Shown: positions 10,671 through 40,236 of the stretch, piece by piece | Layout of the letters: each line of letters starts with the position of its first letter | Numbering within the stretch: the stretch's first letter is position 1 | DNA from: Candidatus Babeliales bacterium | GTDB taxonomy: Bacteria; Vulcanimicrobiota; Vulcanimicrobiia; Vulcanimicrobiales; Vulcanimicrobiaceae | Length of the DNA stretch: 64,000 nt | Direction: 5' to 3' | Assembly: GCA_035654155.1 (NCBI GenBank) | Contig: DASRXM010000016.1 | Coordinates: forward strand, 10,924 to 74,923 | Program-made: the position numbers and the translations under genes | Notes under the pieces: generated by a model | Databases searched by the model: none | The model's input: only the letters and a program-made list of their open reading frames with translations | Told to the model about the DNA's origin: nothing

Positions 10671-10691
10671 CGACCGAGAGAGCGAAGAAGC

Positions 10692-11264: not shown

Positions 11265-12553
11265 GGTTCGCGCCGGAGCGCGCGCATCATGACCGGACCG
11301 GCCGGCCGCAGCGTAACGAGCGGCGCGATCTCAACTCGGGCGCCCGGTTCGATCGTAAAGCGAAAGCGCGACACGAGAACCTCCAAGACCATCGTCGCCT
11401 CGTGCAACGCAAACTCATCGCCGATGCAGCGCCGCGCACCGCCGCCGAACGGAACGTACGCAAAGGGCGGCGGCTCGGGGCCAAGCCACCGATCCGGCTC
11501 GAACCGCTGCGGATTCACGAAAAGATCGCTGCGCCGATGCAATAGCAATGGACAGGCAAATACCGTCGTCTTCGCCGGGATGAAACTTCCGTCGGCCAGG
11601 GTTACGTCGCGCAGCGTCTCACGTCCGATGATCCATGCCGGCGGGTAAAGCCTCAGCACTTCCTTGACGACGCGGCCGGCGTACTCCCGATCGCCGGCAC
11701 GCGCAGCCGCCGCGGCGCGCTCTTCGACGTCCGGGTGCTGCGCCAAGAGATAGAGCGCCCAGGTCAGCGCGTTGGCCGTGGTTTCGTGGCCGGCCATGAA
11801 GAGCGTCATGATCTCGTCTCGAATTTGCCGGTCGGACACGGCTGCGGTTTCGGCGTCCTGCGATTTGAGCAGCAACGAGAGCGCGTCGCCGCGATCGGCG
11901 CCGTCGCGGCGACGGCGTTCGATGAGCCCGTAGATAATTTCGTCGAGCTCGCGGTGGGCCCGCCAAAAGCGCCGCGTGTTGCGCAGCGGCAGCCGCTGCC
12001 GCAGAGCGCCCAGAGGCGTGAGCATTGCCGGAAACTCGTTCATCATGAGGCGCAACGCGCCGGCGACGGTTTGCGCCGAAGCGCTCTCGTCGCTGCCGAA
12101 AAGCGTTTCGCTTGCAATGCGAAGCGTCAGCTCGGTCATGGCGGCATGCGCGTCGAACGCGCCGGGCGCCGGGCGCTCGGCAAACTCGAGCGCATCCCGC
12201 TCCATGATGCGCCCGTATTCAGCGATGCGCTCGCGATGAAACGCAGGTTGTACGATACGGCGCATCCGGCGATGTAACGGATCCTCGCTCGTCAGCAGAC
12301 CCTCGCCCAGCAACAGGCGCAGCACGCGCGTTCCCAAGGATTTCGAAAACGCGTGCTGCTGCGTGACCAATACGTCCTTGACGAGTGACGGCTCGTTGAC
12401 GAAAACGTACGAACGCCACGGCAGGGCAAAGGCTACGACGTTGCCGTAGCGCGCGCAAGCTTCGCTCAAGAAGCCGGGAAAGCGACGGAGCGGCTGAGGA
12501 AGAAGCCCGCGCAGCGTCGTCCAACGATTGGGGCCTGGTATGCTACCGCGCAT
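11261..12553 (-). CDS. Cytochrome P450
   Basis: 430 aa. I-helix AGHETT, K-helix EVLRLYPP (ExxR) and the heme-Cys loop FGGGARRCIGDEFA. Confidence 0.92.
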   Translation of the reverse strand: MRGSIPGPNRWTTLRGLLPQPLRRFPGFLSEACARYGNVVAFALPWRSYVFVNEPSLVKDVLVTQQHAFSKSLGTRVLRLLLGEGLLTSEDPLHRRMRRIVQPAFHRERIAEYGRIMERDALEFAERPAPGAFDAHAAMTELTLRIASETLFGSDESASAQTVAGALRLMMNEFPAMLTPLGALRQRLPLRNTRRFWRAHRELDEIIYGLIERRRRDGADRGDALSLLLKSQDAETAAVSDRQIRDEIMTLFMAGHETTANALTWALYLLAQHPDVEERAAAAARAGDREYAGRVVKEVLRLYPPAWIIGRETLRDVTLADGSFIPAKTTVFACPLLLHRRSDLFVNPQRFEPDRWLGPEPPPFAYVPFGGGARRCIGDEFALHEATMVLEVLVSRFRFTIEPGARVEIAPLVTLRPAGPVMMRALRREP

Positions 12554-13961: not shown

Positions 13962-13985
13962 AACCGTGCGGTCAAGCGACTCCTA

Positions 13986-14540
13986 ATGAAGCGCATCTGC
14001 GTGTTTTGCGGTTCTCACGTCGGCAACGATCCCTCGTACGCGCGCGTCGCGCGCGAAACCGCCGAAGCGATCGTCGCGGCCGGTTACGGCGTCGTCTACG
14101 GCGGCGGAGGCGTCGGTTTGATGAAGATCGTCGCCGATGCCGCGCTCGCGTGCGGCGGCGAAGTGATCGGCGTGATTCCCCATGCGCTTGCGCGCACCGA
14201 GATGGCCCACGAAGGCCTCACGCAGCTTCACGTCGTGGACACGATGCACGAACGCAAGGCGATGATGGAGGACTTTAGCGACGCTTTCGTTGCGCTTCCC
14301 GGCGGCTTCGGCACGATGGACGAGTTCTGCGAGGTCCTGAGCTGGCGCCAGCTTCGCATCCACGACAAGCCGATTGGGCTGCTCAACTTTCGCGGCTATT
14401 ACGACGCATTGCTTGCGCTGTTCGATTCGATGGTCCGCGATGGCTTCATTGGTCCGTACACGCGCGGGTTGTTCGTCGATGCAGCCACGATTGACGAGCT
14501 CTTAACGCAGATGTTCTCTACTCAGCGAGCGCCGCCGTAA
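13986..14540 (+). CDS. LOG-family (TIGR00730) cytokinin riboside 5'-monophosphate phosphoribohydrolase-like protein
   Basis: Trimmed to ATG 13986 (MKRICVFCGS...). Motifs GGGGVGLM and PGGFGTMDE. Confidence 0.85.
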   Translation: MKRICVFCGSHVGNDPSYARVARETAEAIVAAGYGVVYGGGGVGLMKIVADAALACGGEVIGVIPHALARTEMAHEGLTQLHVVDTMHERKAMMEDFSDAFVALPGGFGTMDEFCEVLSWRQLRIHDKPIGLLNFRGYYDALLALFDSMVRDGFIGPYTRGLFVDAATIDELLTQMFSTQRAPP

Positions 14541-25640: not shown

Positions 25641-27047
25641 ATGTACCGCTTCACACGTCTGCTTCTCACCGCACTTCTGCTGGCCGCATTCGCGACGGTC
25701 GCGATACTGCTCGTCGGGTACGGCACCGGCAGAATTGCGCGCGATTCGGTATTCGAAGTTGCCACCACCGGCGACTTGCGCGACCTGTTCGCCCAGCCGC
25801 AACCGGCGGGATCGATGCTGGTCACCTTGGCGTTGCGTAAGCTCGAAAGCGATTACTACAAGCCGATCGATCCGCAGACGCCGTTAATCGGCGAGGCTGC
25901 GGCGCTGCGAACCGTTTTAAGCAGCAAGAAGATCGCCGGCCTCCTTCCGAGCGAAACCGCCAACGGAGACCCGCGGCAGGACGGCGAGCGCGCAGCCGAC
26001 GTGCTGGCGTTCGCGCAAGATCACTACGCCGCCGGCTTCGGCCCGAACGGGCGCGAGGATCTCACCGACGCAGCGCTGCGCGGCATCATGGATTCGGTGC
26101 GCGATCCGTACACCGTCTATCTCTCGCCCCACGAGATTCAAGGCCTCAACGAATCCCTTTCAGGCGGTAACTTCGGAGGCATCGGCGTCTACATCTATCA
26201 ACTCAAAGACGGCCGAATCGTCGTACAGCCGATCGAAGACATGCCTGCGGCTCGCGCCGGAATGAAGCCCGGCGAGGTCGTCGATACCGTCGACGGCAAG
26301 ACCGTGCGCGGTCTTAGCATCGACCGTGTGGAAACGATGATTCGCGGAGAAGCCGGAACGCTCGTTCGTTTGCGCGCCCACGAATACAACAAACCTTCGG
26401 GCGAACGGACCTACGCGATCGTTCGGGAGATCATTCACGTCCCCACGGTGCGCGCAAAAATGGAGAACGGATTCGATTACATCCGGCTCTCGGACTTCGG
26501 AACCACCTCGAGCGACGAGGTTCGCAAAGCCCTGCTCGAAGGACGGGCCCATAACGCCCGCGGGTACATTCTCGATCTTCGCGATAACGGCGGAGGCCTG
26601 CTCGATGCCGCAGTCGAGATTTCCAGTTTCTTCATACCGCAGGGAACGATCGTTTCTACGATCCGTCGCGACGGTCAGAAAACGAGCCAAGAGGCGCTCG
26701 GTGACGCCATCGGCGGCCTGCATCCACTTGTCGTGCTGGTGAACAAATACACGGCCAGCGCCTCCGAGATCACCTCGGGCGCGTTGCAGGATTACCACCT
26801 CGCAACCCTGGTAGGAACGCGCACGTTCGGCAAGGGCGTCGTGCAAAGCATTTTCCCGCTGCCGGATCAAGGGGCGCTCAAGATTACTACCGCGCGTTAT
26901 CTCACGCCCGCCGGGCGAGACATTCAACATCACGGCATCGAGCCCGACGTCGTCGTCGACCAGGATCCGAACCCGGCGATCATCGACACGCCGGCCGACA
27001 AACAGCTGACTGCGGCCAAGGAACACCTCCGAGCCCAGCTTCGTTAA
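25641..27047 (+). CDS. S41 carboxy-terminal processing peptidase (CtpA-like), copy 1, N-terminal TM anchor
   Basis: PDZ domain (GIGV...G.P.A.AG...GD) and S41 catalytic blocks (LDLRDNGGG, VNKYTASASEI, GTRTFGKG). Confidence 0.9.
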   Translation: MYRFTRLLLTALLLAAFATVAILLVGYGTGRIARDSVFEVATTGDLRDLFAQPQPAGSMLVTLALRKLESDYYKPIDPQTPLIGEAAALRTVLSSKKIAGLLPSETANGDPRQDGERAADVLAFAQDHYAAGFGPNGREDLTDAALRGIMDSVRDPYTVYLSPHEIQGLNESLSGGNFGGIGVYIYQLKDGRIVVQPIEDMPAARAGMKPGEVVDTVDGKTVRGLSIDRVETMIRGEAGTLVRLRAHEYNKPSGERTYAIVREIIHVPTVRAKMENGFDYIRLSDFGTTSSDEVRKALLEGRAHNARGYILDLRDNGGGLLDAAVEISSFFIPQGTIVSTIRRDGQKTSQEALGDAIGGLHPLVVLVNKYTASASEITSGALQDYHLATLVGTRTFGKGVVQSIFPLPDQGALKITTARYLTPAGRDIQHHGIEPDVVVDQDPNPAIIDTPADKQLTAAKEHLRAQLR

Positions 27048-27060
27048 CAGTTTGGAGATT

Positions 27061-28416
27061 ATGAAACGCTTATTTTCGCTTCTCTTGGCATGCGGTCTAA
27101 TGGCCGGCGCGGTTTCGGTCGCCGCGGCGGCCCAGACGACGTCGCTTCCCACGCTCGACGCTGCGGAGATCGCCACCAGCTACGACTATCTGCTGGAGAA
27201 TTTCTATAAAAAAGTCGACGCTCAAGCGGTGCTCGATTCGATCCGCGCGCAGCTGCTCTCCGCGATGCGCACCGCGGGCGTCAAGAACGCCGAACTTCCG
27301 ACGATGCACGCCGACCAGAACGCGGTGGCCAACGTTCGCGAGATCGATCGTGAGATCCAGGACGCCGCGACCGAATCGACTCATAAGTTCACGCCCCATG
27401 CGCTTACCTACATCGCCCTCGACGGCATGATGAAGTCGGTCGACGACCGGTACACCGTGTTTATGACGCCTAAAGAGTTCGCGGGACTCAATCAGGGCCT
27501 CGACGGTGGCGACTTCGGCGGAACCGGCATCGTGATCCAGATCGACGATAAGACGAAGTACGTCTCGGTAGAGAACGTGGTGCCGGACGGACCGGCCGAC
27601 AAGGCGGGCATCGTACAAGACGACCTCATCACGACGATCGACGGCGCCTCGACCAAAGGTATGAGCCTCTCCGAAGCCAGCGGAAAACTGCGCGGCAAGG
27701 AAGGCACGAAGGTAACGCTGACCATCGAGCGCGATAGCGCCGCGCTTCCTGCGCCGATCACGATTACGCGCGCAAAAATCCATCAGCTGAGCGTTTATGA
27801 AAAGATGCTGCCCGGAAAGATCGGTTTCATCGCTTTGACCGTCTTCGGCCGGGACACCGGGGACGAGCTCAACGCGGCGCTCGACCGTTTGCAGCAGCAA
27901 GGAGCGCGGGCGCTGATCCTCGATTTGCGCGACAACGGCGGCGGCTATCTCGAAGCCGCGGTTGCGGTCAGCTCTAAATTTATTCCGAGCGGACCGATCG
28001 TATCGGTCGAATCGCGCGCCTCGAACATCACCACGCTGGACGCCGACGACACCGCCATCAATCCGTTGCCGCTCGTCGTTCTCGTAAACGGATATACGGC
28101 CTCGGCATCGGAAATCACGTCGGGCGCCATTCAGGACAGCAGCGTCGGCACGATCATCGGTACGAAAACCTTCGGAAAAGGCGTCGTGCAAACGATCATT
28201 CCGCTACCCGACAAGAGCGCAATCAAAGTCACGACGGCGCGCTATCTGACGCCGCGCAACCGCGACATCAACCATCTCGGAATCACGCCCGACATCGTGG
28301 TGGTCGAAAACAAGCACCCGCAGTTTGGCCAACCGTCCAAAGACGAGCAGCTGGAGCGCGCGATCCAATATCTCGACGACCGGCTCGCGCACCTCAGCGC
28401 GGAGAACGGCGGCTAG
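27061..28416 (+). CDS. S41 carboxy-terminal processing peptidase (CtpA-like), copy 2, cleavable signal peptide
   Basis: Track TTG 27052 trimmed to ATG 27061, with GGAG upstream. Same PDZ and S41 blocks as copy 1 (LDLRDNGGG, VNGYTASASEI, GTKTFGKG). Confidence 0.9.
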   Translation: MKRLFSLLLACGLMAGAVSVAAAAQTTSLPTLDAAEIATSYDYLLENFYKKVDAQAVLDSIRAQLLSAMRTAGVKNAELPTMHADQNAVANVREIDREIQDAATESTHKFTPHALTYIALDGMMKSVDDRYTVFMTPKEFAGLNQGLDGGDFGGTGIVIQIDDKTKYVSVENVVPDGPADKAGIVQDDLITTIDGASTKGMSLSEASGKLRGKEGTKVTLTIERDSAALPAPITITRAKIHQLSVYEKMLPGKIGFIALTVFGRDTGDELNAALDRLQQQGARALILDLRDNGGGYLEAAVAVSSKFIPSGPIVSVESRASNITTLDADDTAINPLPLVVLVNGYTASASEITSGAIQDSSVGTIIGTKTFGKGVVQTIIPLPDKSAIKVTTARYLTPRNRDINHLGITPDIVVVENKHPQFGQPSKDEQLERAIQYLDDRLAHLSAENGG

Positions 28417-28421
28417 GGGAC

Positions 28422-30929
28422 CTAACTCGGCGTCTCGCCCGAGTCCGCGGCGGCCTTTGGCTTGCGCGACCGCTTTGGCTTCGCGCTTGGGTCGTCGGCG
28501 CTCGCACTCTTGCGTGTCCGTCGAGACTTCGGCGCGGGCGTCGGCAACGCCAGCGCGGACGCCGAGCCTTGCAGCTCCTCGGGCTTGCCGGCGGCACCGC
28601 GCGCCCGCCGCTTGCGCGCGGGTTTGGTTCGCTTTGGATCTTGCGGCGGAATCGAAAGGCTTGGCGGCGGGGCTTCAACTGCCGGCGGAGCCTCGCTTAC
28701 CGTCGCGATTGCGCGCGACGGTTCCACCGGTGCGGTCGTCCCGGTGGCGTGGGCTGCTCCGTCGGAGCTGACCTCGAAGATGTGACGATCCGGTGTCGGA
28801 ACGAACGGCGACCCGCCACCCCGGCCGCGACGACCGCGCCGCCGGCGGCGGCGACGGCGGTGCTGGCCTGCACCATCTCCTAAGTTTGGGGGTTCGGTCG
28901 CCGGCGGCGGCATGGCAGGCGCAGCCAGCGTCGTCTCTTCGGCTTCCTCGCGGCCGCGGCCCCGGCGACGGCGGCGGCGCTTGCGGTGACCGTCGCCCTG
29001 GGCGTGCTGCACCGCACCCTGCGCGATGATGATCGCGTCCGGCTGCGCTTCGCCGATGCGTTCGGCCCTCAGCGCTCTGTCTTGCGCCTCTTCCTCTTCG
29101 GTAACCGGCGAGATTCCGATCGGCGGGCGCGAAGCCGACTGGCGCGCCGCATCTTCGGCGAGCTCGCGCAGCTGGCGCGTTTGCTCCGCAGCTGAGACTT
29201 CGGCGCCGCGTACGCGACGCTTGCGGCGCGCCTTGGCACCCGCCGTCACCAGCTCGGCAAGCACGTAATCCTCGCGGTCGGCGACGTCGATAATGCGGAT
29301 GCGAACGAAGTTGCCGGCGTTGTTCGCAGCATTTTCGACTTCCGCCAAGCGCCCCTCGACGACGGCGGCCGCCGAGGTTGGATTCGGCAATCGTCCGGCG
29401 ACCAACTCGACGTCGTGCTCGTCGCCGACGCGGACCGAACGCGCGCCGCGCTCCTTAAAGCCGGCGACCATCTCGATGCGCGACTTCTCCGGATGAATCA
29501 TCGGATCGACGCGCACGTGGATCGGATGTGCGATCGCGCGCGCCAGCTCCCGGCACTCCTCTTCGTACCAGAACTCCATTTGCACCGCGACCGTCGGCGC
29601 GACGTGCACGACCACGTCACCTGCAACGCCGTTGCCGGCCTCGTTGCGAATTCGCCGGAAGGTCTCGATGGCGACCGACTGCGAGGACATCACGCTTCCC
29701 ATTCCCGCGCAGGTCGGACACGCGCCGCGAAGCTGGCTGCCCAGGTCCTTCCCGACGCGCTTGCGGGTGAATTCGAGCAAGCCCAGGTTCGAAAACGACT
29801 GGATCGTCGCGCGCGTGCGATCCTTGCGCAGGCTCTCTTCCATCGTCTGGATGACTTTCTCGCGCGATGCCTCCGAGGCCATGTCGATGAAGTCGACCAC
29901 AACGATGCCGCCGATATCGCGCAGGCGTACCTGGCGCGCGACCTCTTCGGCGGCTTCGATGTTCGTCTTGAGGATCGTGTCCTCGAGGTTGCGGCCCCCG
30001 GTGAACTTGCCCGAGTTGACGTCGATCACCGTCAAGGCCTCGGTGGACTCGATCACGATCGACGCGCCCGAAGGAAGGTTGATTTTCGGCCGCATCAGCT
30101 TCTGCAGCTCGTCGTCGATCTTATAATCGTCGAAGAGCGAGCGCCCGGAATTGTAATACTCGATGCGTCCGATGTACTGCGGGCCCAGCAGCTGCAGGAA
30201 GTCGCGGATCTTCCGGTACTCCTCTTCGTCGTCGATCAGCACCCGCTCGACGTCGGCTGTGATGAAATCTCGCGCGGCCTTGTAGACGAGGTTCATGTCC
30301 TTGTGCAGCAACGACGGCGAAGCGGCGCGCTTGTACATTTCGAGAATGCCGTGCCACATGCGGATCAACACGCCGAGGTCGGCGATCAGCTCGGCTTCGC
30401 TGGCGCCGGCTGCGGCGGTCCGAACGACGGTCGCCATGCCCTCGGGCCGAATCCGCTTCATGACGTTTTTGAGGCGGTTGCGTTCGTCCGCCGTTTCGAT
30501 CTTGCGGGAAACCCCGGAGTATTTGCCGGTCGGCATCAGGATCAGATAACGGCCCGGAAGCGAGATGTTCGTCGAGATTCGCGCTCCCTTGAGACCGCGG
30601 GGCTCTTTGACGATCTGCACCAGCACGTCGTCGCCGCGCTTGACCTTCTCGCTGATGGTGAACCCGCTGTGCCCCTGCGTTATCTCGACGTCGCCGATGT
30701 TCAGCGGCTGCTTGTTAATGTCGTCGACGTAAAGAAAGGCGTTGCGGCCCAGGCCGATGTCGACGAACGCCGCGCCCATCCCCGGGAGCACGTTCTGCAC
30801 CTTGCCTTTGTAAATCGAGCCGATGACCCGCTCTTCGCGCTCGATGTAGAGTTCGGCTAACCCGCCGTCCTCGAGTATGGCGACCCGGTTTTCCCAAGGG
30901 TCGCTCGAGATCAATATCTCGCTCGACAA
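28422..30929 (-). CDS. rne: Ribonuclease E (RNase E/G-family catalytic N-terminal half plus Arg/Pro-rich disordered C-terminal half)
   Basis: TTG start. S1 domain (GSIYKGKVQNVLPGMGAAFVDIG), DNase-I-like and Zn-link regions (VIDVNSGKF, IVVDFIDM, CPTC.G.G). The C-terminal ~330 aa are low-complexity with poly-Arg runs (KRRRRRRGRG; HRRRRRRRRGRRGRGGG). Confidence 0.9.
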   Translation of the reverse strand: MSSEILISSDPWENRVAILEDGGLAELYIEREERVIGSIYKGKVQNVLPGMGAAFVDIGLGRNAFLYVDDINKQPLNIGDVEITQGHSGFTISEKVKRGDDVLVQIVKEPRGLKGARISTNISLPGRYLILMPTGKYSGVSRKIETADERNRLKNVMKRIRPEGMATVVRTAAAGASEAELIADLGVLIRMWHGILEMYKRAASPSLLHKDMNLVYKAARDFITADVERVLIDDEEEYRKIRDFLQLLGPQYIGRIEYYNSGRSLFDDYKIDDELQKLMRPKINLPSGASIVIESTEALTVIDVNSGKFTGGRNLEDTILKTNIEAAEEVARQVRLRDIGGIVVVDFIDMASEASREKVIQTMEESLRKDRTRATIQSFSNLGLLEFTRKRVGKDLGSQLRGACPTCAGMGSVMSSQSVAIETFRRIRNEAGNGVAGDVVVHVAPTVAVQMEFWYEEECRELARAIAHPIHVRVDPMIHPEKSRIEMVAGFKERGARSVRVGDEHDVELVAGRLPNPTSAAAVVEGRLAEVENAANNAGNFVRIRIIDVADREDYVLAELVTAGAKARRKRRVRGAEVSAAEQTRQLRELAEDAARQSASRPPIGISPVTEEEEAQDRALRAERIGEAQPDAIIIAQGAVQHAQGDGHRKRRRRRRGRGREEAEETTLAAPAMPPPATEPPNLGDGAGQHRRRRRRRRGRRGRGGGSPFVPTPDRHIFEVSSDGAAHATGTTAPVEPSRAIATVSEAPPAVEAPPPSLSIPPQDPKRTKPARKRRARGAAGKPEELQGSASALALPTPAPKSRRTRKSASADDPSAKPKRSRKPKAAADSGETPS

Positions 30930-30996
30930 ATTTTCCTCAAACTCGGAAGCCTGCCTATCGCCGCGCTCTCGGTGACCGGTGCGCCCGCGTGGCCGC

Positions 30997-31066
30997 TCCC
31001 TGGTAAAAACTTTTTTCTTAAAAAACTCTGCCGGCGGCCCTCGTCCCGGGGACGGTGCCTGCCGGC
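30997..31066 (-). promoter_or_regulatory. GC-rich hairpin followed by T-runs in the rne upstream/leader region (terminator- or attenuator-like, or part of the promoter)
   Basis: Stem gccggc(31030-35)...cgtcc/ggacg...gccggc(31061-66). On the minus strand it is followed by AGAG TTTTTT AAG AAAAAA G TTTTT (31004-31029), the only strongly AT-rich patch in this neighbourhood. Confidence 0.3.
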
Positions 31067-31201
31067 TTAGCCTTCGATGTGTTCCCGCCGCCCGGGAAGC
31101 GGACCTGCGCCGGGCGTTTTATTCTAACTCTCGTCAACATTTCGGGCGAATTTTCAAACTTTGGCTAGCCCGTGGAAGGGCTTCGTTCTCAATCGAACGG
31201 A

Positions 31202-31215
31202 AATCGAGCGAGCCC
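31202..31215 (+). promoter_or_regulatory. Conserved box AATCGAGCG[A/G]GCCC upstream of lipoprotein cassette 1
   Basis: aatcgagcgagccc lies 31 nt before ATG 31247. A near copy, aatcgaacg, sits 11 nt upstream (31191-31199). The same box occurs before cassette 2. Confidence 0.35.
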
Positions 31216-31246
31216 AAGCTACACTGCGAGGCGCCAAGAGTTTATT

Positions 31247-32413
31247 ATGAAGAGAGCGGATTTCATTTTTTGCAGCCTCGTGTTAGCGGCATGCTCGCGC
31301 ACCCCGGGTGCGTCCGCGCTACCTCCGTTCACGCCGAATCAATCGAAGACGAGCAGCTCCAACTTTGAAACGCTCTTCCGTTTCACGGCCCGCACCGACG
31401 GCCACGTCCCCGTCGGCGTTCTACTGCCGCTCAACGGCGTGTTTTTCGGCACGACCTACTTTGCCGGCAACGCAAACACATCGCACGGAGTCGTCTTCGA
31501 AATCACCACGTCTGGGTTCGAGACGATTCTCCACCTCTTCAAGGGTAAGAGCGATGGGTTAGGACCGTACGCCGGGCTGATCGACGTCAACGGGACGCTC
31601 TACGGAACGACGCAAGAAGGCGGGAAGCACCACCTGGGAACGGTGTATGCGATCACGACGGCGGGCTCGGAAAAGGTTCTTCTTTCCTTTGGTGGCGCAA
31701 ACGGCAGCTACCCCCGCGCGAATCTCCTCGACGTCAACGGCGTGCTCTACGGTACGACGTACTTCGGCGGTTCGCACGGCTACGGAACCGTCTTCTCGAT
31801 GACAACCGCAGGCGCCGAAACCGTGCTCCATAGCTTCAAAGCCGGAACCGATGGCTCCGAGCCGCTCGACCCTTTGATTCTGGTCAAGGGAAAGTTGTAC
31901 GGCACGACTTCGCGGGGCGGCGCAAACGACGATGGAACGGTCTTTGCGATCGACACCAATGGCAAGGAAGAAATACTTTACAGTTTCAAAGGTGGGAAGG
32001 ACGGCATCGAGCCGTTCGGGGGGCTCACCAGCGTCAATGGCACGCTTTACGGCACGACGTTTTACGGCGGCGCCTATTACAAGGGCACTGCCTACAAGAT
32101 CACGACTGCCGGCGCGGAGAGCGTGGTTCATTCATTCGGGAGCGGCACCGACGGTGCCGCTCCCACTGCCGGTCTAACCCTTTATAACGGTGAGCTCTAC
32201 GGCGACACCGAACGCGGCGGGGCAAACGGCAAGGGCACGATCTACGAAATCAGTCCTTCAGGCAGCGAGAGCATCCTGTACAGCTTCACCGGTGGCGATT
32301 CCGGCGATCAGCCCTACGCTGACCTCACCGCATCGGACGGCGCGCTCTACGGCACGACTCTATTCGGCGGCGGACCCAAAAACTTTGGTACCGCCTTCAG
32401 GTTCTCACTCTGA
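31247..32413 (+). CDS. Lipoprotein with ~8 tandem GloVer-type (Gloeo_Verruco, TIGR03803-like) repeats, predicted beta-propeller (G1)
   Basis: Trimmed to ATG 31247. Lipobox LVLAAC. A ~48-aa unit is repeated: G.LYGTT..GG....GTVF.I...G.E..L.SF.GG.DG..P. Confidence 0.75.
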   Translation: MKRADFIFCSLVLAACSRTPGASALPPFTPNQSKTSSSNFETLFRFTARTDGHVPVGVLLPLNGVFFGTTYFAGNANTSHGVVFEITTSGFETILHLFKGKSDGLGPYAGLIDVNGTLYGTTQEGGKHHLGTVYAITTAGSEKVLLSFGGANGSYPRANLLDVNGVLYGTTYFGGSHGYGTVFSMTTAGAETVLHSFKAGTDGSEPLDPLILVKGKLYGTTSRGGANDDGTVFAIDTNGKEEILYSFKGGKDGIEPFGGLTSVNGTLYGTTFYGGAYYKGTAYKITTAGAESVVHSFGSGTDGAAPTAGLTLYNGELYGDTERGGANGKGTIYEISPSGSESILYSFTGGDSGDQPYADLTASDGALYGTTLFGGGPKNFGTAFRFSL

Positions 32414-32440
32414 GCGGTCTTAAGTAAGGGAGCTGCAACG

Positions 32441-33577
32441 ATGTCATTGCATCGTTATCGATGGATAGTACCAACGTTAATCCTTTTTGCGTCGGCGGCC
32501 TGCGGTACGCAGACCGTTCCGTCCAACGCCGGCGCGGGGATGCAGATCTCCGGCATGCCCAAAGCCGGCCTCGGCGCGACCGACAACACGTCAATCCTGA
32601 AGAACCTCAAGAAGGACGTCGTGATCGGATCGACCATCGATTCGAAGAATGGTGACAAAGGCCCGGGAGCCATCTCGATCGTTCCAGGAAAGCAGCGTTT
32701 AAAAACCGGCGACCTGGTTGTCTGCAACTTTGAGGATTCGGCCGGTAAAGCGGGCGCCGGAACGACGATTGAAATCCTCGCTCCGCAGCAAGGCTCTTCG
32801 CCGACGCGCTTCACTCAAAGCGATTCGATCGAAGGTTGCGACGCGAATGCGTTGGCACGACCGAACTACTTGTGGGCCGGCGGCCAGACCAGCGGGGAGG
32901 TCGTGAGGTTCTCTTCGAGCGGAAAACTGCTGAAGGTTTACAAGGGTTCGCCGGTTGCCGCACCGCTTTCGGACGTCAATGCCGGCGCGGCGCAAGAGTT
33001 CGCTCCGAATTATATATTCGTCGGCGCCACGACGTCGGGGGGTATCGTCAGCATCAGCACCGGTTTTTATGGCGACGGCATCGCAACGCAGGTCGCTGAG
33101 GGATTTGCGGTGGGATCCGGTTCGGAGTACAAGCTCGGTCCGACTGGGCTGCAGTACGATCGCCGCATCGATACTCTCTACATCGTCGACGGCGTCACCA
33201 GCACGATCGTCGCATTCTCGCACGCAAGCGATCTGATCGAGAAAGATGAAATTGTCGTCGAGTCCGGCGGCAAGAAATTCAAATGCAAGGAACCCAAGGT
33301 AACGTGCGCTAGCCTCGTCTACAGCGGATCGCCGCTCGATGCGCCCTACGCTTCGGCTCTCTTGCCCAACGGTAATCTCGTCGTGGCGAACACGCAAGGA
33401 ACCGCCAATGCCCTGGTCGAGCTGACGCCGCAGGGCCAAGTGCTCGACACGAAGGTCGTCGACTCCAGCAAGACGCAAGGCGTCTTTGGCCTGGTTGCGG
33501 CCGGAACGAACGACGACAATACCGTCCTCTTCTTCGCGGATGCCAATTCAAACGACGTGCAAGAACTCGAGCCGTAA
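32441..33577 (+). CDS. Lipoprotein, NHL/YncE-like beta-propeller, uncharacterised (N1)
   Basis: Lipobox LFASAAC. AAGGGAG RBS 27 nt after G1. NHL-like strands (LLPNGNLVVANTQGTANALVELTPQGQVLD; LYIVDGVTSTIVAF). Clear paralog of 34965..36140. Confidence 0.7.
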   Translation: MSLHRYRWIVPTLILFASAACGTQTVPSNAGAGMQISGMPKAGLGATDNTSILKNLKKDVVIGSTIDSKNGDKGPGAISIVPGKQRLKTGDLVVCNFEDSAGKAGAGTTIEILAPQQGSSPTRFTQSDSIEGCDANALARPNYLWAGGQTSGEVVRFSSSGKLLKVYKGSPVAAPLSDVNAGAAQEFAPNYIFVGATTSGGIVSISTGFYGDGIATQVAEGFAVGSGSEYKLGPTGLQYDRRIDTLYIVDGVTSTIVAFSHASDLIEKDEIVVESGGKKFKCKEPKVTCASLVYSGSPLDAPYASALLPNGNLVVANTQGTANALVELTPQGQVLDTKVVDSSKTQGVFGLVAAGTNDDNTVLFFADANSNDVQELEP

Positions 33578-33653
33578 CGCATAAACTTTTCTTAACGCTT
33601 TCGGAGGCCACGCGCCAAACGGCCGGCGGCAGGGATTCGATCGTTTCCCCAAG

Positions 33654-33667
33654 AATCGAGCGGGCCC
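33654..33667 (+). promoter_or_regulatory. Conserved box AATCGAGCG[A/G]GCCC upstream of lipoprotein cassette 2
   Basis: aatcgagcgggccc lies 18 nt before ATG 33686. It matches the box at 31202-31215 at 13 of 14 positions. Confidence 0.35.
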
Positions 33668-33685
33668 GTCAGAGGATACTTCTCC

Positions 33686-34957
33686 ATGCGCGCACTTTGT
33701 TTAATTCTATGCACCGCCGTTTTGGCCGGTTGCTCCCGTTGGGCAGCCCCGTCCGTGCTCCCGGGCGACACACCGAGTCAGACCCGGCCGCAGCAGAGCT
33801 CGAACTTCGCAACGATCTATCAGTTTCCTAAAAACGTGGACGGCTCCAATCCGGTCGGCGGATTGCTGAACCTCAACGACGTTCTTTACGGAACGACCTA
33901 TTTCGGCGGTACCAAAGCACCCGGTATGGGCGTTGCTTACCAACTCTCCCTACCAACCTCGGGCAAACCAAAAGAAATCGTGATGCATAAATTCGCCGGC
34001 GGCAGCTACGACGCGGCGAAGCCGTACGCCGGGCTTACGCCGGCGGACTGCACGGCCTCGATGAGCTGCACGCTCTACGGAACGAGCCAGGAAGGCGGTA
34101 CGTATAGCGACGGCACGGTTTACTCGCTCGTGCCCGGCGATCAAGGCAGTGAAGGCGTGACCTACTCGTTCAGCGGCCCACCGAACGACGGTAAGAACCC
34201 GCGGGCGAGTTTGTTGAACGTCGACGGCGTGCTCTACGGCACGACCTACTACGGCGGAGCAGCCGATTTAGGCACGGTCTTTGCGATTACTACCGGAAGC
34301 AGCAGCGTTACCGAGACGGTAATCCACAGCTTTACCGGCGGCAGCGGCGACGGCGCCCTGCCGCTTGGCCCGCTGATCAACGTCAACGGCGCCCTCTACG
34401 GAACGACGTCGGAGGGCGGTCCGAACGACGACGGAACCGTCTTCGAAATTCCGTTGTCGACTTCCGGCGGAGGCGAACAACTGCTCTATAGCTTTACGGG
34501 CGCACCGGACGGGGCTAAGCCGTATGCCGGACTGACCGCCGTCAACGGCTCGCCTTCCGGCGCGCTCTACGGAACGACGTATGAAGGCGGCGTCCACAAC
34601 AAAGGCACGATTTTTGAGCTCAGCACGTCCGGGGCCGAGAGCGTGCTCTACAGTTTCGCCGGCGAACCCGACGGCAAATTACCGACTGCCGGCCTAACCC
34701 TTCTCAACGGGATTCTTTACGGCGCAACGGCCCACGGAGGCGCGCACAACAAAGGCACGATCTTTGAAGTCCTCCCGTCGGGCGGAGAGAACGTGCTCTA
34801 CAGCTTTACCGGCGGAGCCGACGGCTACAATCCATACAATACGCTGATAGCATCCGGCGGCGCGCTCTACGGAACGACGCTGTTTGGCGGAGCGGGCACC
34901 GGCGCAATGGGCACCGTCTTTGAATATTTCGCCTCGAGTAGCTCGCATCGGAGGTAA
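33686..34957 (+). CDS. Lipoprotein with tandem GloVer-type repeats, predicted beta-propeller (G2)
   Basis: Lipobox AVLAGC. Same LYGTT..GG...GTVF repeat unit as G1, with some longer inter-repeat loops. Confidence 0.75.
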   Translation: MRALCLILCTAVLAGCSRWAAPSVLPGDTPSQTRPQQSSNFATIYQFPKNVDGSNPVGGLLNLNDVLYGTTYFGGTKAPGMGVAYQLSLPTSGKPKEIVMHKFAGGSYDAAKPYAGLTPADCTASMSCTLYGTSQEGGTYSDGTVYSLVPGDQGSEGVTYSFSGPPNDGKNPRASLLNVDGVLYGTTYYGGAADLGTVFAITTGSSSVTETVIHSFTGGSGDGALPLGPLINVNGALYGTTSEGGPNDDGTVFEIPLSTSGGGEQLLYSFTGAPDGAKPYAGLTAVNGSPSGALYGTTYEGGVHNKGTIFELSTSGAESVLYSFAGEPDGKLPTAGLTLLNGILYGATAHGGAHNKGTIFEVLPSGGENVLYSFTGGADGYNPYNTLIASGGALYGTTLFGGAGTGAMGTVFEYFASSSSHRR

Positions 34958-34964
34958 CGACGCG

Positions 34965-36140
34965 GTGCTTTGCTTGCCTCGCCTGACGGTCGCGATCGTT
35001 GTAGCGAGCCTCGTTGCTTCGGCCTGCGCAGCTCAGACGGTTGCGCCGAACTCCGGATCCGTGGCGCCGGCTTCGAGAACTCGGGCAATTAGCCCGCGGC
35101 CGGTTGATACAACTTCGATTCTTAAGCAAGACACTAAAGAGGTCACGATCGGCTCGACCGTCGATGCCACGAACGGCGACATGGGGCCGACTGCGATTTC
35201 GATTGTCCCCGGCAAGGTTAAGAAGGGGCTCCAAAAGGGTAACCTCGTGGTCTGCAACTTTGAGAATTCGGCCGGCTACCAGGGTCAGGGAACGACGCTG
35301 GAAATCCTAGAGCCGGCAGCAAACTCGCCGACGAAACAGTTCGCTCAAAATGACGCGTTTGAAGGCTGCGATGCCGTCGCGCTCAACACTGCGAACGACG
35401 TTTATGCTGGTGGCCTTACCAGCGGCGAGATGGCCGTCTTCTCACCCACTGGCGGAGTGCCCATAAAGACGTACGGCTCAAGCTCGCCAGTTGGCGCACC
35501 GCTTTCGGATACCAATGCGCCTCCTGTAAAGGCCTTTGATCCAGCGTACGTGTACGTTGGCGCGACGACTTCCGGCGGGATCGCAAGTATCTCCGACGGC
35601 GAATACGGCGACGGCCAGGCGACGCAGGTCGCGGAAGGCTTCGCGGTGAGCCAAGGCTCGGGACAACCGCTGGGACCGAGTGGGCTGCAATACAGCAAAT
35701 CGCTCGACGTCCTCTACATCGTCGACGGCGTTACGAATACGATCGTAGGGTTTACGAACGCCAGCAAACTCCTGGTGCAGGACGAGATCGTCGTCGAGCC
35801 CGGCGGCCAGACGTTCCAGTGCCTGTACCCCAGCGTCACGTGCGGGTTTCTCGTCTTCGCCGACACGTCGAGCTACTCGCCGCTCAATGCGCCGGTGGCA
35901 TCCGCATTGTTGCCCAACGGCAATCTCATCGTGGCCAACACCCAGGGAACGCCCAACACGCTGGTCGAGCTGACCCCAACGGGTCAGATTCTGGATACGG
36001 CCGTCATCAATTCCAACGACACAACGCCGGGGATCTACGGGCTCGTCGCGGCCGGAACCAAGGACGCGAACACCGTTATCTACTTCACCGACATGAACAC
36101 GAACGAGGTCTACGAACTCGAGAAGCCGCCGAAAAAGTGA
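34965..36140 (+). CDS. Lipoprotein, NHL/YncE-like beta-propeller, uncharacterised (N2)
   Basis: Track ORF 34884 trimmed to GTG 34965, because GGAGG lies in the last codons of G2. Lipobox LVASAC. Collinear with N1 (DTSILK..K.V.IGST.D..NGD.GP.AISIVPGK, LVVCNFE.SAG, GLQY...D.LYIVDGV, ALLPNGNL.VANTQGT.N.LVELTP.GQ.LDT). Confidence 0.7.
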   Translation: MLCLPRLTVAIVVASLVASACAAQTVAPNSGSVAPASRTRAISPRPVDTTSILKQDTKEVTIGSTVDATNGDMGPTAISIVPGKVKKGLQKGNLVVCNFENSAGYQGQGTTLEILEPAANSPTKQFAQNDAFEGCDAVALNTANDVYAGGLTSGEMAVFSPTGGVPIKTYGSSSPVGAPLSDTNAPPVKAFDPAYVYVGATTSGGIASISDGEYGDGQATQVAEGFAVSQGSGQPLGPSGLQYSKSLDVLYIVDGVTNTIVGFTNASKLLVQDEIVVEPGGQTFQCLYPSVTCGFLVFADTSSYSPLNAPVASALLPNGNLIVANTQGTPNTLVELTPTGQILDTAVINSNDTTPGIYGLVAAGTKDANTVIYFTDMNTNEVYELEKPPKK

Positions 36141-36149
36141 GCTGACGGC

Positions 36150-37256
36150 TTAGGCGTTCCCGAGAACGTCGCGATCCTTCTGCGAGTAAACATTGAGAAG
36201 AATTCCGATTGCGACGAAATCGGTGAGCATCGCCGATCCGCCGTACGACATGAACGGCAGCGGAATTCCAGTGATCGGCATGATCCCCACGGTCATCCCG
36301 ATATTGACCAGCACGTGAAAGAACAGCATCCCGACTAACCCGGCGGCCAACAGGAAACCGAAACGATCCCGGGCCACCAGCATCGTGCGGATGCCGCCCC
36401 ACAGGATCGCCGCGTAGAGTGCTAGCAGCGCGAGCGCTCCGACGAAGCCCCACTCTTCCGCCAACACCGTAAAAATGAAATCGCGCGAGTGCTCCGGCAC
36501 GAAGTTGAGCTGCGTTTGGGTGCCGTGGTAGAGTCCACGACCGAACCATTCGCCGTTGCCGACCGCGATCTTTGACTGATCGAGGTTGTAACCCGCGCCC
36601 TGCGGATCCGCTTTGGGATTGAGAAAAACGAACAGCCGCGACCGCTGAAAGGGCTTGAGAACCGCGTTGGTGCCGAGGGCCGCCGCCGCAACCACTAGCA
36701 CGCCGAGGGCGTAAATGCCGAAGTCGCCCAGCTTGGGCAGCGCGAAGAAAAGCTCGACGCTCAGAATTGCAAGCAGCACGAGCGACGTGCCCAAATCGGG
36801 CTGCTTGAGAATTAGCAGCGCCGGCACCGCGACGGTTGCCAGCGGCTTCCACAGCTCTTGCAAATTCTGATAGGTGCCGCGGCAGAGAACGGCGGCCAAG
36901 GCGATGGCGATCACGAGCTTTGCCGGCTCAGAGGGCTGAAACGTCCCCAACGGGCCCAGCGAAATCCACCGCTGGGCGCCCATCGCGCTATGGCCGCCGC
37001 GCAGGATGAAGATCAGCATCAGCAAGTTGATCGCGTACAGTCCCGGCGCCCAGCGCTGCCACGTGCGATAATCGACTAGCGAGATTCCGAACATTGCGAA
37101 AATTCCCAGCAGCAGATAGAGTATCTGCTTTTTGAATTCTCCGCTAGCGTCGGGCGAGTGAAGCCCTGCCGAACGAACGCAAACGATGCCGAGCAGCGAG
37201 ATGGCGACTCCGGCAACGGCCAGCGTCCAGTTGAAGTTGCGCAGGTAGCGTTTCAC
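36150..37256 (-). CDS. rodA: SEDS-family peptidoglycan glycosyltransferase (FtsW/RodA family; RodA by context)
   Basis: 368 aa, 10-TM SEDS pattern (QPSE.AK, LQPDLGT, SDFIF....EE.GF.G, GG.P..G.PLPF.SYGGS). Lies immediately downstream of minE. Confidence 0.8.
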   Translation of the reverse strand: MKRYLRNFNWTLAVAGVAISLLGIVCVRSAGLHSPDASGEFKKQILYLLLGIFAMFGISLVDYRTWQRWAPGLYAINLLMLIFILRGGHSAMGAQRWISLGPLGTFQPSEPAKLVIAIALAAVLCRGTYQNLQELWKPLATVAVPALLILKQPDLGTSLVLLAILSVELFFALPKLGDFGIYALGVLVVAAAALGTNAVLKPFQRSRLFVFLNPKADPQGAGYNLDQSKIAVGNGEWFGRGLYHGTQTQLNFVPEHSRDFIFTVLAEEWGFVGALALLALYAAILWGGIRTMLVARDRFGFLLAAGLVGMLFFHVLVNIGMTVGIMPITGIPLPFMSYGGSAMLTDFVAIGILLNVYSQKDRDVLGNA

Positions 37257-37271
37257 CTGCGGCCTTTGTTT

Positions 37272-37655
37272 CTACCGAGCGGGCACCGGAGCCGCTGCCG
37301 CGGCCGCAGCAACCTTTTTACGGCGACGCCGTTTGCGAACGGGGGGCTTTGCCGGCGGCTGCTCCGCTTGCGGGGGACCCTCGTGGGTCGCGCTTCCGTT
37401 CGGCCGGTTGACCGAAAGTATTGGGATATTTGCAAGCATGGCCAGCGTCCGGTCTTGCCGCTCGAACGTGACGTCGATGCGGTCCCGGTCGACCTCGACG
37501 TAGCGTGAGATCACGTCGACCAGCTCGCGCTTCATAGTTTCGATCATCTCCGGCGCGAGCTCGAGGTGATCGGTCATTAGCACGAGTCGCAATCGTTCCT
37601 TTGCCGTCGCGCTCGAGCCGGATTGGCCAAACAGCCGCTTGAGAAACTCGATCAT
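37272..37655 (-). CDS. minE: Cell-division topological specificity factor MinE, with a basic C-terminal extension
   Basis: The N-terminal ~90 aa are typical MinE (MIEFLKRLFG...SATAKERL.LVL..DH). About 40 extra residues follow (PPAKPPVRKRRRRKKVAAAAAAAPVPAR). ATGA overlap with the upstream minD. Confidence 0.9.
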   Translation of the reverse strand: MIEFLKRLFGQSGSSATAKERLRLVLMTDHLELAPEMIETMKRELVDVISRYVEVDRDRIDVTFERQDRTLAMLANIPILSVNRPNGSATHEGPPQAEQPPAKPPVRKRRRRKKVAAAAAAAPVPAR

Positions 37656-38578
37656 CGCCGCTTCCCTCCCAACAGCGATCCGAGCCGCTCGAACAGCGAA
37701 TCCTTTGCCGCGGCCGGCATGGGCGCGGGCACGTCCTCACCGGCGACCCGCGCCGCGATCGCGTGATACGCCGCACCGGTTGGGGTTGCCGCCTGCAGCG
37801 CGAGCGGCTCGCCGCGATTGGTCGTTACGATAATCTCGGGTTCGTCGGCGATCACGCCCAACAGCGGAAGCCGCAGAATTCCGTTCACGTCGTCGACCGA
37901 GAGCATCTTGCCTTTCTTTACTAAGTGGGGACGAAGCCGATTGATGACCAGCTGCGGCCGGAAACGGTTGCCGAGCAATCCGACGACGCGGTCGACGTCG
38001 CGCACCGCCGCCACTTCCGGCGTGCAGACGACGATCGCTTCGTCGGCGCCGGCGACGGCGTTTTTGAAGCCCAGTTCAATTCCAGCCGGGCTGTCGATCA
38101 GCACGTAATCGAAGCGCTCGCGCAGATTCGAGACCAGGGCCTGCATTTTGACGGTCTCGACATCGTCTTTCTCTCGCGCCTGCGCGGCGGCCAGCAAGGA
38201 GAGCCTCTCGGTGTGCTTGTCCGCAACGAGGGCATCCTCAACCGGAACGCGATCCTCGAGCACGTCGAGCAAGTGATGCCTGACGCGGTTCTCCAAGCCC
38301 AACACGATGTCCAAATTGCGCAAACCGACGTCGGCGTCCACCAGCACGACGCTCGCACCCCGATTTGCGAGCGCCGTGCCGAGGTTTGCGGTCGTCGTAG
38401 TCTTGCCGACGCCGCCTTTGCCCGACGTGATTACGATGGCGCGGCCGCCCTTCGCCTTTTGTCCTTCGACTACGCTCCCCTTCGACTCCACTTCGACTCG
38501 CTGCGCTCGCTCAGTGTCGCTCAAGGTCGTTCCGCTCAGGATGACACCGCTGTCGTCGTCTTCTTGCCGTTGATGCAC
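37652..38578 (-). CDS. minD: Septum-site-determining ATPase MinD, paralog 1 (possible N-terminal extension)
   Basis: Deviant Walker A SGKGGVGKTTTTANLG, DADVGLRNLD, DSPAGIE and a C-terminal amphipathic helix (SLFERLGSLLGGKRR). The GTG start at 38578 gives a ~45-aa acidic leader. The true start could be downstream. Confidence 0.88.
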   Translation of the reverse strand: MHQRQEDDDSGVILSGTTLSDTERAQRVEVESKGSVVEGQKAKGGRAIVITSGKGGVGKTTTTANLGTALANRGASVVLVDADVGLRNLDIVLGLENRVRHHLLDVLEDRVPVEDALVADKHTERLSLLAAAQAREKDDVETVKMQALVSNLRERFDYVLIDSPAGIELGFKNAVAGADEAIVVCTPEVAAVRDVDRVVGLLGNRFRPQLVINRLRPHLVKKGKMLSVDDVNGILRLPLLGVIADEPEIIVTTNRGEPLALQAATPTGAAYHAIAARVAGEDVPAPMPAAAKDSLFERLGSLLGGKRR

Positions 38579-38584
38579 GCTACG

Positions 38585-39376
38585 TTACCCCGCTTTCAAC
38601 GCGTCGAGAATGCGTCCGAAGAACGTTTGATTGTCGAAGGTCGTAAACGGAACGAGCTCGCCTTCGAGCCGGCGTGCGATCTTGTCGTAGATTGCGCGCA
38701 GCCGATTGGCGTCGTTCAAGACGATCGGCTCTCCGCGGTTGGTGGTGTCGATGATCTCCTCGTCGTCGGGCACGATCCCGAGCAGCTCGATCGAGAGCAC
38801 TTCGCAAACGTCCTCGACCGAGAGCATATCGCCGCTGCGCACCATCTCGGGGCGCAACCGGTTGACGATCAAACGAATCGGCTTGCCCGCGCCGGCGATC
38901 TTACCGACGACGCGGTCCGCATCCCGAATCGCGCTCACCTCGGGGGTGGTGACGACGATCGCTTCGCTTGCGCCCGCCACCGCATTTCGAAAGCCCGTTT
39001 CGATTCCCGCTGGCGAGTCGATCAGCACGTAATCGGCTTGTTCGGCCGCGCGATCTACGATTGCGGCGAACTGCTCGGCCGTGATCGCGTCTTTTTCGCG
39101 GGTCTGTGCCGCCGGCAGAATCGAGAGCGAATCGAAGCGCTTGTCTTTGATCAGCGCCTGACGAAGCTGGCAACGCCCTTCGGCGACCTCGACCAAATCG
39201 AAGACGATTCGTTTTTCGAGCCCAAGCACCAAGTCGAGATTGCGCAAGCCGATGTCGGCGTCGATCAGAATGACTTGCTTGCCGCGTTTGGCAAGGGTTG
39301 CACCGAGATTGGCGGTGGTGGTCGTCTTGCCGACGCCGCCCTTGCCCGAGGTGACCACGATTTTACGCGCGTTCAT
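38585..39376 (-). CDS. minD: Septum-site-determining ATPase MinD, paralog 2
   Basis: Trimmed to ATG 39376 (MNARKIVVTSGKGGVGKTTTTANLG), an ATGA overlap with minC. DADIGLRNLD, DSPAGIE, C-terminal amphipathic helix FFGRILDALKAG. Confidence 0.92.
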   Translation of the reverse strand: MNARKIVVTSGKGGVGKTTTTANLGATLAKRGKQVILIDADIGLRNLDLVLGLEKRIVFDLVEVAEGRCQLRQALIKDKRFDSLSILPAAQTREKDAITAEQFAAIVDRAAEQADYVLIDSPAGIETGFRNAVAGASEAIVVTTPEVSAIRDADRVVGKIAGAGKPIRLIVNRLRPEMVRSGDMLSVEDVCEVLSIELLGIVPDDEEIIDTTNRGEPIVLNDANRLRAIYDKIARRLEGELVPFTTFDNQTFFGRILDALKAG

Positions 39377-40236
39377 GAAAGCGACGACCTCGCGTCGTTG
39401 CACTCAGCCAAGCTGTTCAGCGGCAGGATCACGATCTGTCCGGCGCGCACCAGGGCTGCCTCGGGTCCCCTCCCGACGCTCGGGCGCGCGCTATCTTCGA
39501 CGGCAATGAAGGTGGCGATGCGCAGCTGGGTCGCTGCGAGATCGAGCGCGTAAATGTGCGCGGCTTCATCGCCCTGCGCGCCGGCGTGCGCGGTTCCCGC
39601 CAGCCTCCCGAAGACGAGAACGTCGCCGGTTGCAATCAACTCGGCGCCGGGATTGACGTCGCCGACCACGACGATGTTTCCGGTGTGATGCAAGGCTTGT
39701 CCGCCACGCAGGGTCGCGGCGTGATAGAGCGTAGTGGGTAACGCCTCAACCAGCCGCAGCTCGGGATGCGGACGCGGTTGCGTTTCGAACTTGGCACGCC
39801 GCACGCTTGCCTCGCCTCTTTTTCGGCGCTGCGCGATGTCGGTGCGAGCGCCGGCGAAATCGGCCACCAGCGACTGCGCCGACTCGGAAAGGCGGGTCGT
39901 AGCCGGGACTTCGAACTGCAGGCCCTCGGCCGCGGCGAGCGCCTCGAGGCCCTGGCCCGTGCCGCAAAGCGCTCGCAGCGTGATCCCGGCTTGAGAGAGC
40001 AGGCCGCGCAGCCGCGCGAGGTCCTGCGCCGCTGGTACCGTCGCGCCGAAACTGGCTACGGCGCGAGCCCCCTGATAAAAGCTCGGCTGGCGAGCAAGCC
40101 GAGCCTCCAGCTCGCCGAAAGCCTCCTCCAAATCGCGGCCGGAGAGCGTGACTTCAAGGCCGTCCAGCCTCCCTCGCAAGAGTGTCACGCTGCGCTGTGC
40201 GCGAAGAAAGCGTCGCAGTCCCTTCGCCATCCACAA
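39373..40236 (-). CDS. minC: Septum-site-determining protein MinC
   Basis: The C-terminal beta-helix region is typical of MinC (LRGGQ.L.H.GN.VVVGDVNPGAE.IA.GD..VFG.L.G.AHAG). The N-terminal domain is separated from it by a basic linker. Confidence 0.85.
   Translation of the reverse strand: MWMAKGLRRFLRAQRSVTLLRGRLDGLEVTLSGRDLEEAFGELEARLARQPSFYQGARAVASFGATVPAAQDLARLRGLLSQAGITLRALCGTGQGLEALAAAEGLQFEVPATTRLSESAQSLVADFAGARTDIAQRRKRGEASVRRAKFETQPRPHPELRLVEALPTTLYHAATLRGGQALHHTGNIVVVGDVNPGAELIATGDVLVFGRLAGTAHAGAQGDEAAHIYALDLAATQLRIATFIAVEDSARPSVGRGPEAALVRAGQIVILPLNSLAECNDARSSLS

Follow-up and report, generated by a model that had tools for sequence, protein, structure and literature searches.

The stretch of contig DASRXM010000016.1 analysed here (64,000 nucleotides, nt; hereafter the window) carries four consecutive plus-strand genes between the minus-strand genes rne and rodA, organized as two copies of the same two-gene unit. 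The first gene of each unit (G1, G2) encodes a lipoprotein built of GloVer repeats, and the second (N1, N2) a lipoprotein predicted to fold as an NHL-like beta-propeller. Comparison with related genomes indicates that the four genes probably represent a tandem array, specific to a lineage of Eremiobacterota (Vulcanimicrobiota), of a conserved G-N module whose two products would act together.

A preliminary description of this DNA had arranged the four open reading frames (ORFs) as two G-N units, and all four were found at the same coordinates in the ORF list. An independent gene caller run on the public copy of the contig (ENA ERZ27251333, k141_2309064) returned the same products of 388, 378, 423 and 391 amino acids (aa), and the N1 sequence is identical to that of public protein P0001 (locus tag VFF63_02350). 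The start codons at 31247 (G1) and 34965 (N2) are backed by the N-termini of homologues. The tight spacing and the Shine-Dalgarno motifs noticed earlier are also present: the G1 stop codon (32411-32413) precedes the N1 ATG at 32441 by a short spacer, and the G2 TAA stop (34955-34957) lies directly 3' of a GGAGG motif, with the N2 GTG start at 34965 (Table 1). All four genes are real and are translationally coupled within each pair. No further G or N copies were found in the window. A promoter and terminator scan of the spacers gave nothing useful, with no sigma-70-like promoter 5' of G1 and no terminator-like site in the N1-G2 spacer, and an Rfam scan of positions 28000-38000 at E <= 1 found no RNA element.

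G1 and G2 had been read as GloVer-repeat proteins, and in a hidden Markov model search they score 266.6 and 213.1 bits against the NCBIfam GloVer family TIGR03803, whose curated cutoff is 44 bits. Each contains seven repeat stretches of ~48-50 aa, visible in the DNA as a 147-150-nt periodicity, and the two proteins are 53% identical over their full length (E 2e-120). The AlphaFold2 model of G1 (predicted local distance difference test, pLDDT, 87.2; predicted template modelling score, pTM, 0.85; 34-sequence alignment) shows seven ~50-residue four-stranded repeats following a disordered tether at residues 1-36, and the protein is thereby predicted to be a seven-bladed beta-propeller on a flexible tether. 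Foldseek searches with this model returned generic propellers only (BamB, lactonases, Kelch and WD40; template modelling score, TM, 0.5-0.6), the top match being BamB at TM ~0.5-0.57 and 10-14% identity. A PDB search with the G profile gave no meaningful match, and hence no sequence-related solved structure. Literature searches for TIGR03803, Gloeo_Verruco and GloVer repeat returned no paper that mentions the family, in agreement with the preliminary remark that no function had been described for a GloVer protein paired in this way, and searches on Eremiobacterota and propellers returned nothing relevant.

N1 and N2 are collinear paralogs with 58% identity over their full length (E 2e-142), consistent with the earlier estimate of half or more by eye. 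Neither matches a Pfam or NCBIfam family above its cutoff: N1 scores 18.5 bits against SGL (PF08450, the SMP-30/gluconolactonase/LRE-like Ca-dependent hydrolases), over residues 122-168 only and below the gathering cutoff of 26.3, and has no NHL match, while N2 scores 16.2 bits against NHL (PF01436), below the gathering cutoff of 20. Three distant homologues (P0130, P0266 and P0235) do pass the NHL cutoff, at 33-61 bits, and a few N homologues carry a precomputed PF08450 tag. The proposal that N is an NHL-like propeller, left below threshold by the Pfam scores, is borne out by structure prediction. In the AlphaFold2 model of N1 (pLDDT 81.7, pTM 0.83; 30 sequences), residues 1-45 are disordered and are followed by a six-bladed propeller, for which the best Foldseek matches are NHL domains, the NHL-derived Pizza6, Vgb lyase and peptidyl-alpha-hydroxyglycine alpha-amidating lyase (E ~1e-10); target-normalised TM against NHL-type structures is 0.7-0.85, at 9-16% identity. 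N1 is accordingly modelled as a six-bladed beta-propeller of NHL type. Sequence searches of the PDB with N1 and with the N profile gave no meaningful match, and a search of a viral fold library returned only generic propellers.

The N family is small, comprising 304 clusters at 50% identity (E <= 1e-3) in a full scan of 1.8 billion representatives. About 85 positions, many of them D, N or E, are near-invariant across the family, and this conserved core is the same with or without an adjacent G gene. Besides the cysteines, the residues invariant throughout the family include D67, N70, D72, N96, E111, D134, D178, D250, E270, N310, N312, N317, N323, E327, D358 and D367. Family-specific features are an IGSTxDxxNGDxGP motif, a conserved tether motif, the lipobox and four invariant cysteines (C95, C133, C282 and C289) that probably form two disulfides. 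Some distant N homologues bear SLH, Big_7 or DUF4214 domains, which point to a likely location at the cell surface. G and N are not detectably homologous to one another (profile-profile probability 7%), and a 31-nt DNA similarity between G and N genes was dismissed as chance or generic blade composition.

All four proteins had been credited with lipoboxes. Lipoprotein signals of the PROSITE PS51257 type consist of a positive n-region, a hydrophobic h-region and a lipobox, [LVI..][AST..][AGS]C, with the cysteine at about position 15-35. Read by eye, all four N-termini fit this signal peptidase II pattern, with VLAAC16 in G1, LAGC16 in G2, ASAAC21 in N1 and ASAC21 in N2; G1 and G2 thus have the N-terminal signal peptide and lipobox by which a GloVer protein is classed as extracytoplasmic and anchored. 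The lipobox cysteine is kept in all 62 alignable G homologues (62/62) and in 92/96 N homologues. The pattern and its conservation together support G and N as predicted lipid-anchored, extracytoplasmic proteins.

The closest relatives of every gene examined are metagenome-assembled genomes (MAGs) of Eremiobacterota, labelled Candidatus Cybelea or Baltobacteraceae and including palsa, SPRUCE and MFD (Microflora Danica) MAGs. At NCBI the present MAG is filed under 'Candidatus Babeliales bacterium'; homologues and synteny all indicate Eremiobacterota, and the bin is probably mislabelled. Eremiobacterota are diderm, with an outer membrane (PMC6664022), and electron microscopy of a cultured isolate shows a diderm envelope (PMC9758169). 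The G and N lipoproteins should therefore be periplasmic or surface-exposed.

The association of G with N extends well beyond the window. A scan for N loci in one genome per species returned 80 loci (L001-L080), all 80 from Eremiobacterota and often several per genome. With adjacency defined as a distance of at most 700 bp, a G gene adjoins 37 N genes, whereas 7.8 ± 2.4 would be expected if the same G genes were shuffled within their own loci (maximum 17 in 2000 trials); the co-occurrence in related genomes that the preliminary description asked for is thus present. Only one N clade shows this linkage: of its 54 members, ~48 have a linked G gene and a further two sit at the end of a contig. 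Its most common form is a single divergent G<>N pair, found in 33 species with ~250-400 bp between the lipobox codons, and in the 24 full-length loci of this kind only G and N are common to all, the flanking genes being different. The aligned intergenic regions of the divergent pairs contain conserved blocks, from which no regulator site was inferred, the loci being orthologous.

Co-directional pairs, with spacers of 7-29 nt, occur in both orders: G precedes N in the window, in L081, in L034, L037 and L045, and in L167, whereas N precedes G in L166 and partly in L165. The G-then-N bicistron that had been described is therefore real in the window and at some other loci but is not the general form, most species having the divergent pair and another array the reverse order. 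What is conserved, within a single subclade, is G beside N irrespective of their orientation. The partnered G proteins and three tandem G paralogs form one weakly supported clade (67% neighbour-joining bootstrap; 100% for the divergent-pair G proteins) that mirrors the N tree. With an adjacency that is conserved in three gene orders and clades of N and G that mirror one another, the comparative case that G and N are functionally coupled is strong, and the earlier suggestion that the two proteins work together appears well supported.

The pair has also been amplified as a unit. L081, a related contig from the same sample, has three pairs (Ga-Na-Gb-Nb-Gc-Nc) before rodA in the same ftsEX-M23-S41-S41-rne context. 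G1/N1 are 79%/80% identical to Ga/Na, and G2/N2 are 66%/72% identical to Gc/Nc; both orthology groupings have 100% bootstrap in the N and G trees, and the window lacks a counterpart of the middle pair Gb/Nb. A sliding-window comparison for chimerism, such as loss of the middle pair might leave, found N1 to be Na-like along its whole length. In the N tree, the two window proteins and the three of L081 form a monophyletic group (91% bootstrap). Tandem duplication of the G-N unit is supported, since L081 contains one orthologous pair for G1/N1 and another for G2/N2. A longer array, L166 (same sample, k141_1784155; RodA 87% identical), reads N-G-N-G-N-G-N-G at 7593-17112 and abuts the 3' end of rodA, with spacers of 19-29 nt, one 4-nt overlap, and glycosyltransferases at its far side, while L165:7588-12381 is a G-N-N-G block among GT2, GT4 and Wzy_C genes. 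G and N copy numbers are equal in each array (2:2, 3:3, 4:4 and 2:2). Within the single sample ERZ27251333, the L164, L081 and L166 populations thus carry 2, 3 and 4 G-N pairs beside rodA. The ratio of nonsynonymous to synonymous substitution rates (dN/dS) between orthologues is 0.13-0.25, which indicates purifying selection.

In the preliminary description the block looked like an insertion or expansion, and empty sites in close relatives agree with insertion. In the metagenomic contigs L084, L085 and L087 (RodA 87-89% identical) the order is minC-minD-minD-minE-rodA-rne-S41-S41, with a rodA-rne distance of ~200-250 bp and no G or N gene. By local alignment with these sites, the left boundary lies at ~31110-31135 and the right one at 36141-36149. 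Because close relatives have rodA directly followed by rne, an insertion between these two genes, with a copy number varying among 0, 2, 3 and 4, is supported. A repeat search around the insertion revealed no mobile-element signature; apart from the GloVer periodicity it found only short low-identity pairs, none of which bracket the boundaries.

Table 1. Features of the G-N array and its flanks, in window coordinates.
Feature	Position	Strand	Basis or remark
rne/rng (RNase E/G)	28422..30929	-	ORF and Pfam RNase_E_G on the public gene call; left flank, outside the module
Left junction and 5' region of G1	31135..31246	+	Sequence absent from empty rodA-rne intergenic regions
G1, GloVer-repeat lipoprotein, 388 aa	31247..32413	+	TIGR03803; predicted 7-bladed beta-propeller, ~22-residue tether
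G1-N1 spacer, 27 nt	32414..32440	+	Sequence reading; Shine-Dalgarno AAGGGAG at 32426-32432
N1, lipoprotein, 378 aa	32441..33577	+	Predicted 6-bladed NHL-like beta-propeller, ~30-residue tether, four invariant cysteines
N1-G2 spacer, 108 nt	33578..33685	+	Resembles the Nb-Gc spacer of the three-pair relative L081
G2, GloVer-repeat lipoprotein, 423 aa, G1 paralog	33686..34957	+	TIGR03803
G2-N2 spacer, 7 nt	34958..34964	+	Sequence reading; GGAGG Shine-Dalgarno (34950-34954) within the G2 end
N2, lipoprotein, 391 aa, GTG start, N1 paralog	34965..36140	+	58% identical to N1
Right junction, 9 nt separating the stop codons of N2 and the convergent rodA	36141..36149	.	ORF list and alignment with empty sites
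rodA	36150..37256	-	Pfam FTSW_RODA_SPOVE on the public gene call; right flank, outside the module

The explanation favoured here, which we regard as reasonably probable, is that a conserved two-gene module of Eremiobacterota, the two products of which act together, here forms a lineage-specific tandem array with a copy number that varies between populations. The module would have been inserted between rodA and rne and then expanded and contracted by unequal recombination to 0, 2, 3 or 4 pairs. G and N may be made in about 1:1 amounts and, most likely as a heterodimer, be jointly active at the cell surface or in the periplasm. N would hold a conserved ligand-binding or catalytic site, common to all N paralogs with or without G, and G would serve one clade as an accessory or substrate-capture subunit; the paralogous pairs, diverged to 53-58% identity, might then have different specificities. 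A phosphoester or polymer of the environment or of the envelope may be the ligand. This last is the weakest step, a guess made because N genes adjoin genes of PF04185 phosphoesterase lipoproteins above chance.

Several observations weigh against this explanation. Most N paralogs have no G neighbour or lie in N-N tandems, and most GloVer proteins, in a family vastly larger than the N family, are apparently unpaired; N therefore mostly works without G. Many of the 33 divergent-pair loci are orthologous, and so the adjacency counts are not independent events. In the G tree the window and L081 genes are not recovered as a clade (25% bootstrap), so that this tree does not by itself establish duplication as a unit. 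No PF04185 gene is present in the window. No catalytic signature was recognized in N, where the SGL and NHL scores are below cutoffs, and a conserved D or N after strand B is also a structural feature of non-enzymatic NHL repeats.

PF04185 phosphoesterase genes (for example, L001:5739-8636, L038:4725-6158 and L047:10234-13155) lie within 700 bp of 24 of 96 N units, where chance would give 5.8 ± 2.0; they frequently converge with N and are seen in N clades that lack a G partner as well, so that G is not the only family enriched beside N. PF04185 is a phospholipase C/acid phosphatase family, and a lipobox is present in the example that was inspected. In the 20-kb loci surrounding N genes, there are 94 genes of family N, 83 of X, 75 of G and 50 of PF04185, family X being an unannotated family of ~340 aa proteins whose 83 members are spread over 43 loci. 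NHL-repeat proteins and Vgb-lyase-like propellers (PF24684) are also expanded near N, and several of the expanded families have lipoprotein-like N-termini (examples of their genes are L001:4462-5658, L008:3289-4341 and L020:18709-19800). These observations suggest that the genomes concerned contain large lipoprotein-propeller islands.

In islands of this kind, so rich in lipoproteins and paralogs (G, N, PF04185, X, NHL and Vgb-lyase-like), adjacency could be a by-product of segmental duplication, with G and N functionally independent. The crowding of N loci with expanded lipoprotein families and the many N paralogs without a G neighbour fit this explanation, and the orthologous G-linked loci may reflect one ancestral juxtaposition. 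It is nevertheless unlikely: in one N clade ~48 of the 54 members retain an adjacent G even though every other neighbour varies, the adjacency survives three gene orders including co-directional coupling with 7-29-nt spacers, the partner clades of N and G mirror each other, and G:N numbers are always equal in the arrays.

A more specific extension of a joint role, likewise doubtful, is that N represents an unrecognized class of lipid-anchored NHL-propeller enzymes, for which a GloVer propeller was recruited as an obligate partner in one clade. N would then be a metal-dependent hydrolase or lyase acting on phosphoesters or on envelope or soil polymers, possibly alongside the PF04185 phosphoesterases. 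If true, this would provide the first functional context for the very large, uncharacterized GloVer family, and amplifying the pair in tandem would let peat and soil Eremiobacterota adjust their substrate range. As to the biochemical activity of the pair, no enzyme family, solved structure, defence model or paper was found that explains it.

A surface-variation or contingency locus is a further alternative, and a distinctly unlikely one. On this account the exposed pairs would be diversified, gained and lost so as to evade phages or predators or to change adhesion targets, with no enzymatic role required. Close populations do differ in presence and copy number (0/2/3/4), three of them from one sample, the paralogs are strongly diverged, and the array orthologues are only 66-80% identical where the flanking RodA is 97% identical (from a partial L081 sequence); the NCBIfam name and the SLH and Big_7 fusions of distant N homologues also point to the surface. 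The low dN/dS values, however, indicate purifying selection overall, and the N core, with its near-invariant positions, is highly conserved. The repeat search found no hypervariable segments, phase-variation repeats or invertible elements, the PADLOC defence models matched none of the four G and N proteins, and a single-copy divergent pair is kept in most species.

A role in envelope biogenesis or cell shape together with RodA, Min or FtsEX, with G as a BamB-like scaffold, is very improbable. In its favour, rodA adjoins the arrays of the window, L081 and L166, the best structural match of G1 is BamB, and glycosyltransferase and Wzy-type genes flank L165 and L166. Against it, rne, rodA or min neighbours occur at none of the N loci of other genomes (0/80), close relatives with an intact minCDDE-rodA-rne region dispense with the cassette, and the BamB match is a generic one. 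A functional link to rodA was rejected for the first two of these latter reasons. The conserved cell-shape neighbourhood in which the block had been noticed is thus its insertion site but no clue to its function, and, given the 80 other loci, a mere landing site; the array has no bearing on cell shape or division.

The landing site itself shows other features. In several relatives the rodA-rne slot holds different small unrelated genes (L088:1651-2268, L089:10904-12601, L099:5450-6064 and L106:5791-7226), and it looks like a recurrent insertion site. To the right of the block, rodA-minE-minD-minD-minC occupies 36150-40236 on the minus strand. Its two minD genes (37652-38578 and 38585-39403) are tandem paralogs between minE and minC, the first with an N-terminal extension of ~70 residues, and this arrangement is kept in all Eremiobacterota relatives examined. 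On the other side, rne is preceded by ftsE-ftsX, a gene for a PcsB-like M23 peptidase and two tandem genes for S41 peptidases (Ctp-type, PDZ), an order also kept in relatives; the peptidase and ftsEX region corresponds to 25641-28416 in the window and, further upstream, to L164:379-5978.

GloVer proteins number many thousands across soil phyla, and co-inheritance of N with one GloVer subclade offers a concrete experimental handle on a family without a function, structure or literature found. Eremiobacterota are abundant in peat and oligotrophic soils and are represented by one cultured isolate in the literature searched, and little is known of their envelope biology. The 0/2/3/4-copy polymorphism at a single chromosomal site, among populations co-occurring in one sample, is a natural case of tandem array dynamics and could mark strain-level adaptation.

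Among known families, TIGR03803 is the one to which G1 and G2 clearly belong, far above its cutoff; it is very large, and no function, solved structure or publication was found for it. G1 and G2 are distinguished by their predicted lipobox anchors and by membership of the one GloVer subclade that is tied to an NHL-like partner gene, which is not a general GloVer property. BamB resembles G in being a lipid-anchored periplasmic propeller, and it scaffolds within a protein complex, the machinery for beta-barrel assembly (BAM); it has eight blades, however, and G shows neither a sequence relationship to it nor a genomic link to BAM genes. The predicted fold of N1 is like that of NHL-repeat propellers (PF01436; the TRIM71 and Brat NHL domains and the Pizza designer proteins) and of the related enzymes Vgb lyase and peptidyl-alpha-hydroxyglycine alpha-amidating lyase, although N1 and N2 fall below every Pfam cutoff and no known catalytic residues could be placed on N. 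The SusC/SusD-like pairs of Bacteroidota are paired, paralogously expanded genes for surface proteins. The G and N families are unrelated to them, and the module has no TonB-dependent transporter, linked glycoside hydrolases or regulator; the likeness lies in the genomic logic only, by which two envelope proteins have adjacent genes, the pair has been duplicated many times in a genome or lineage and the copies diverge in specificity.

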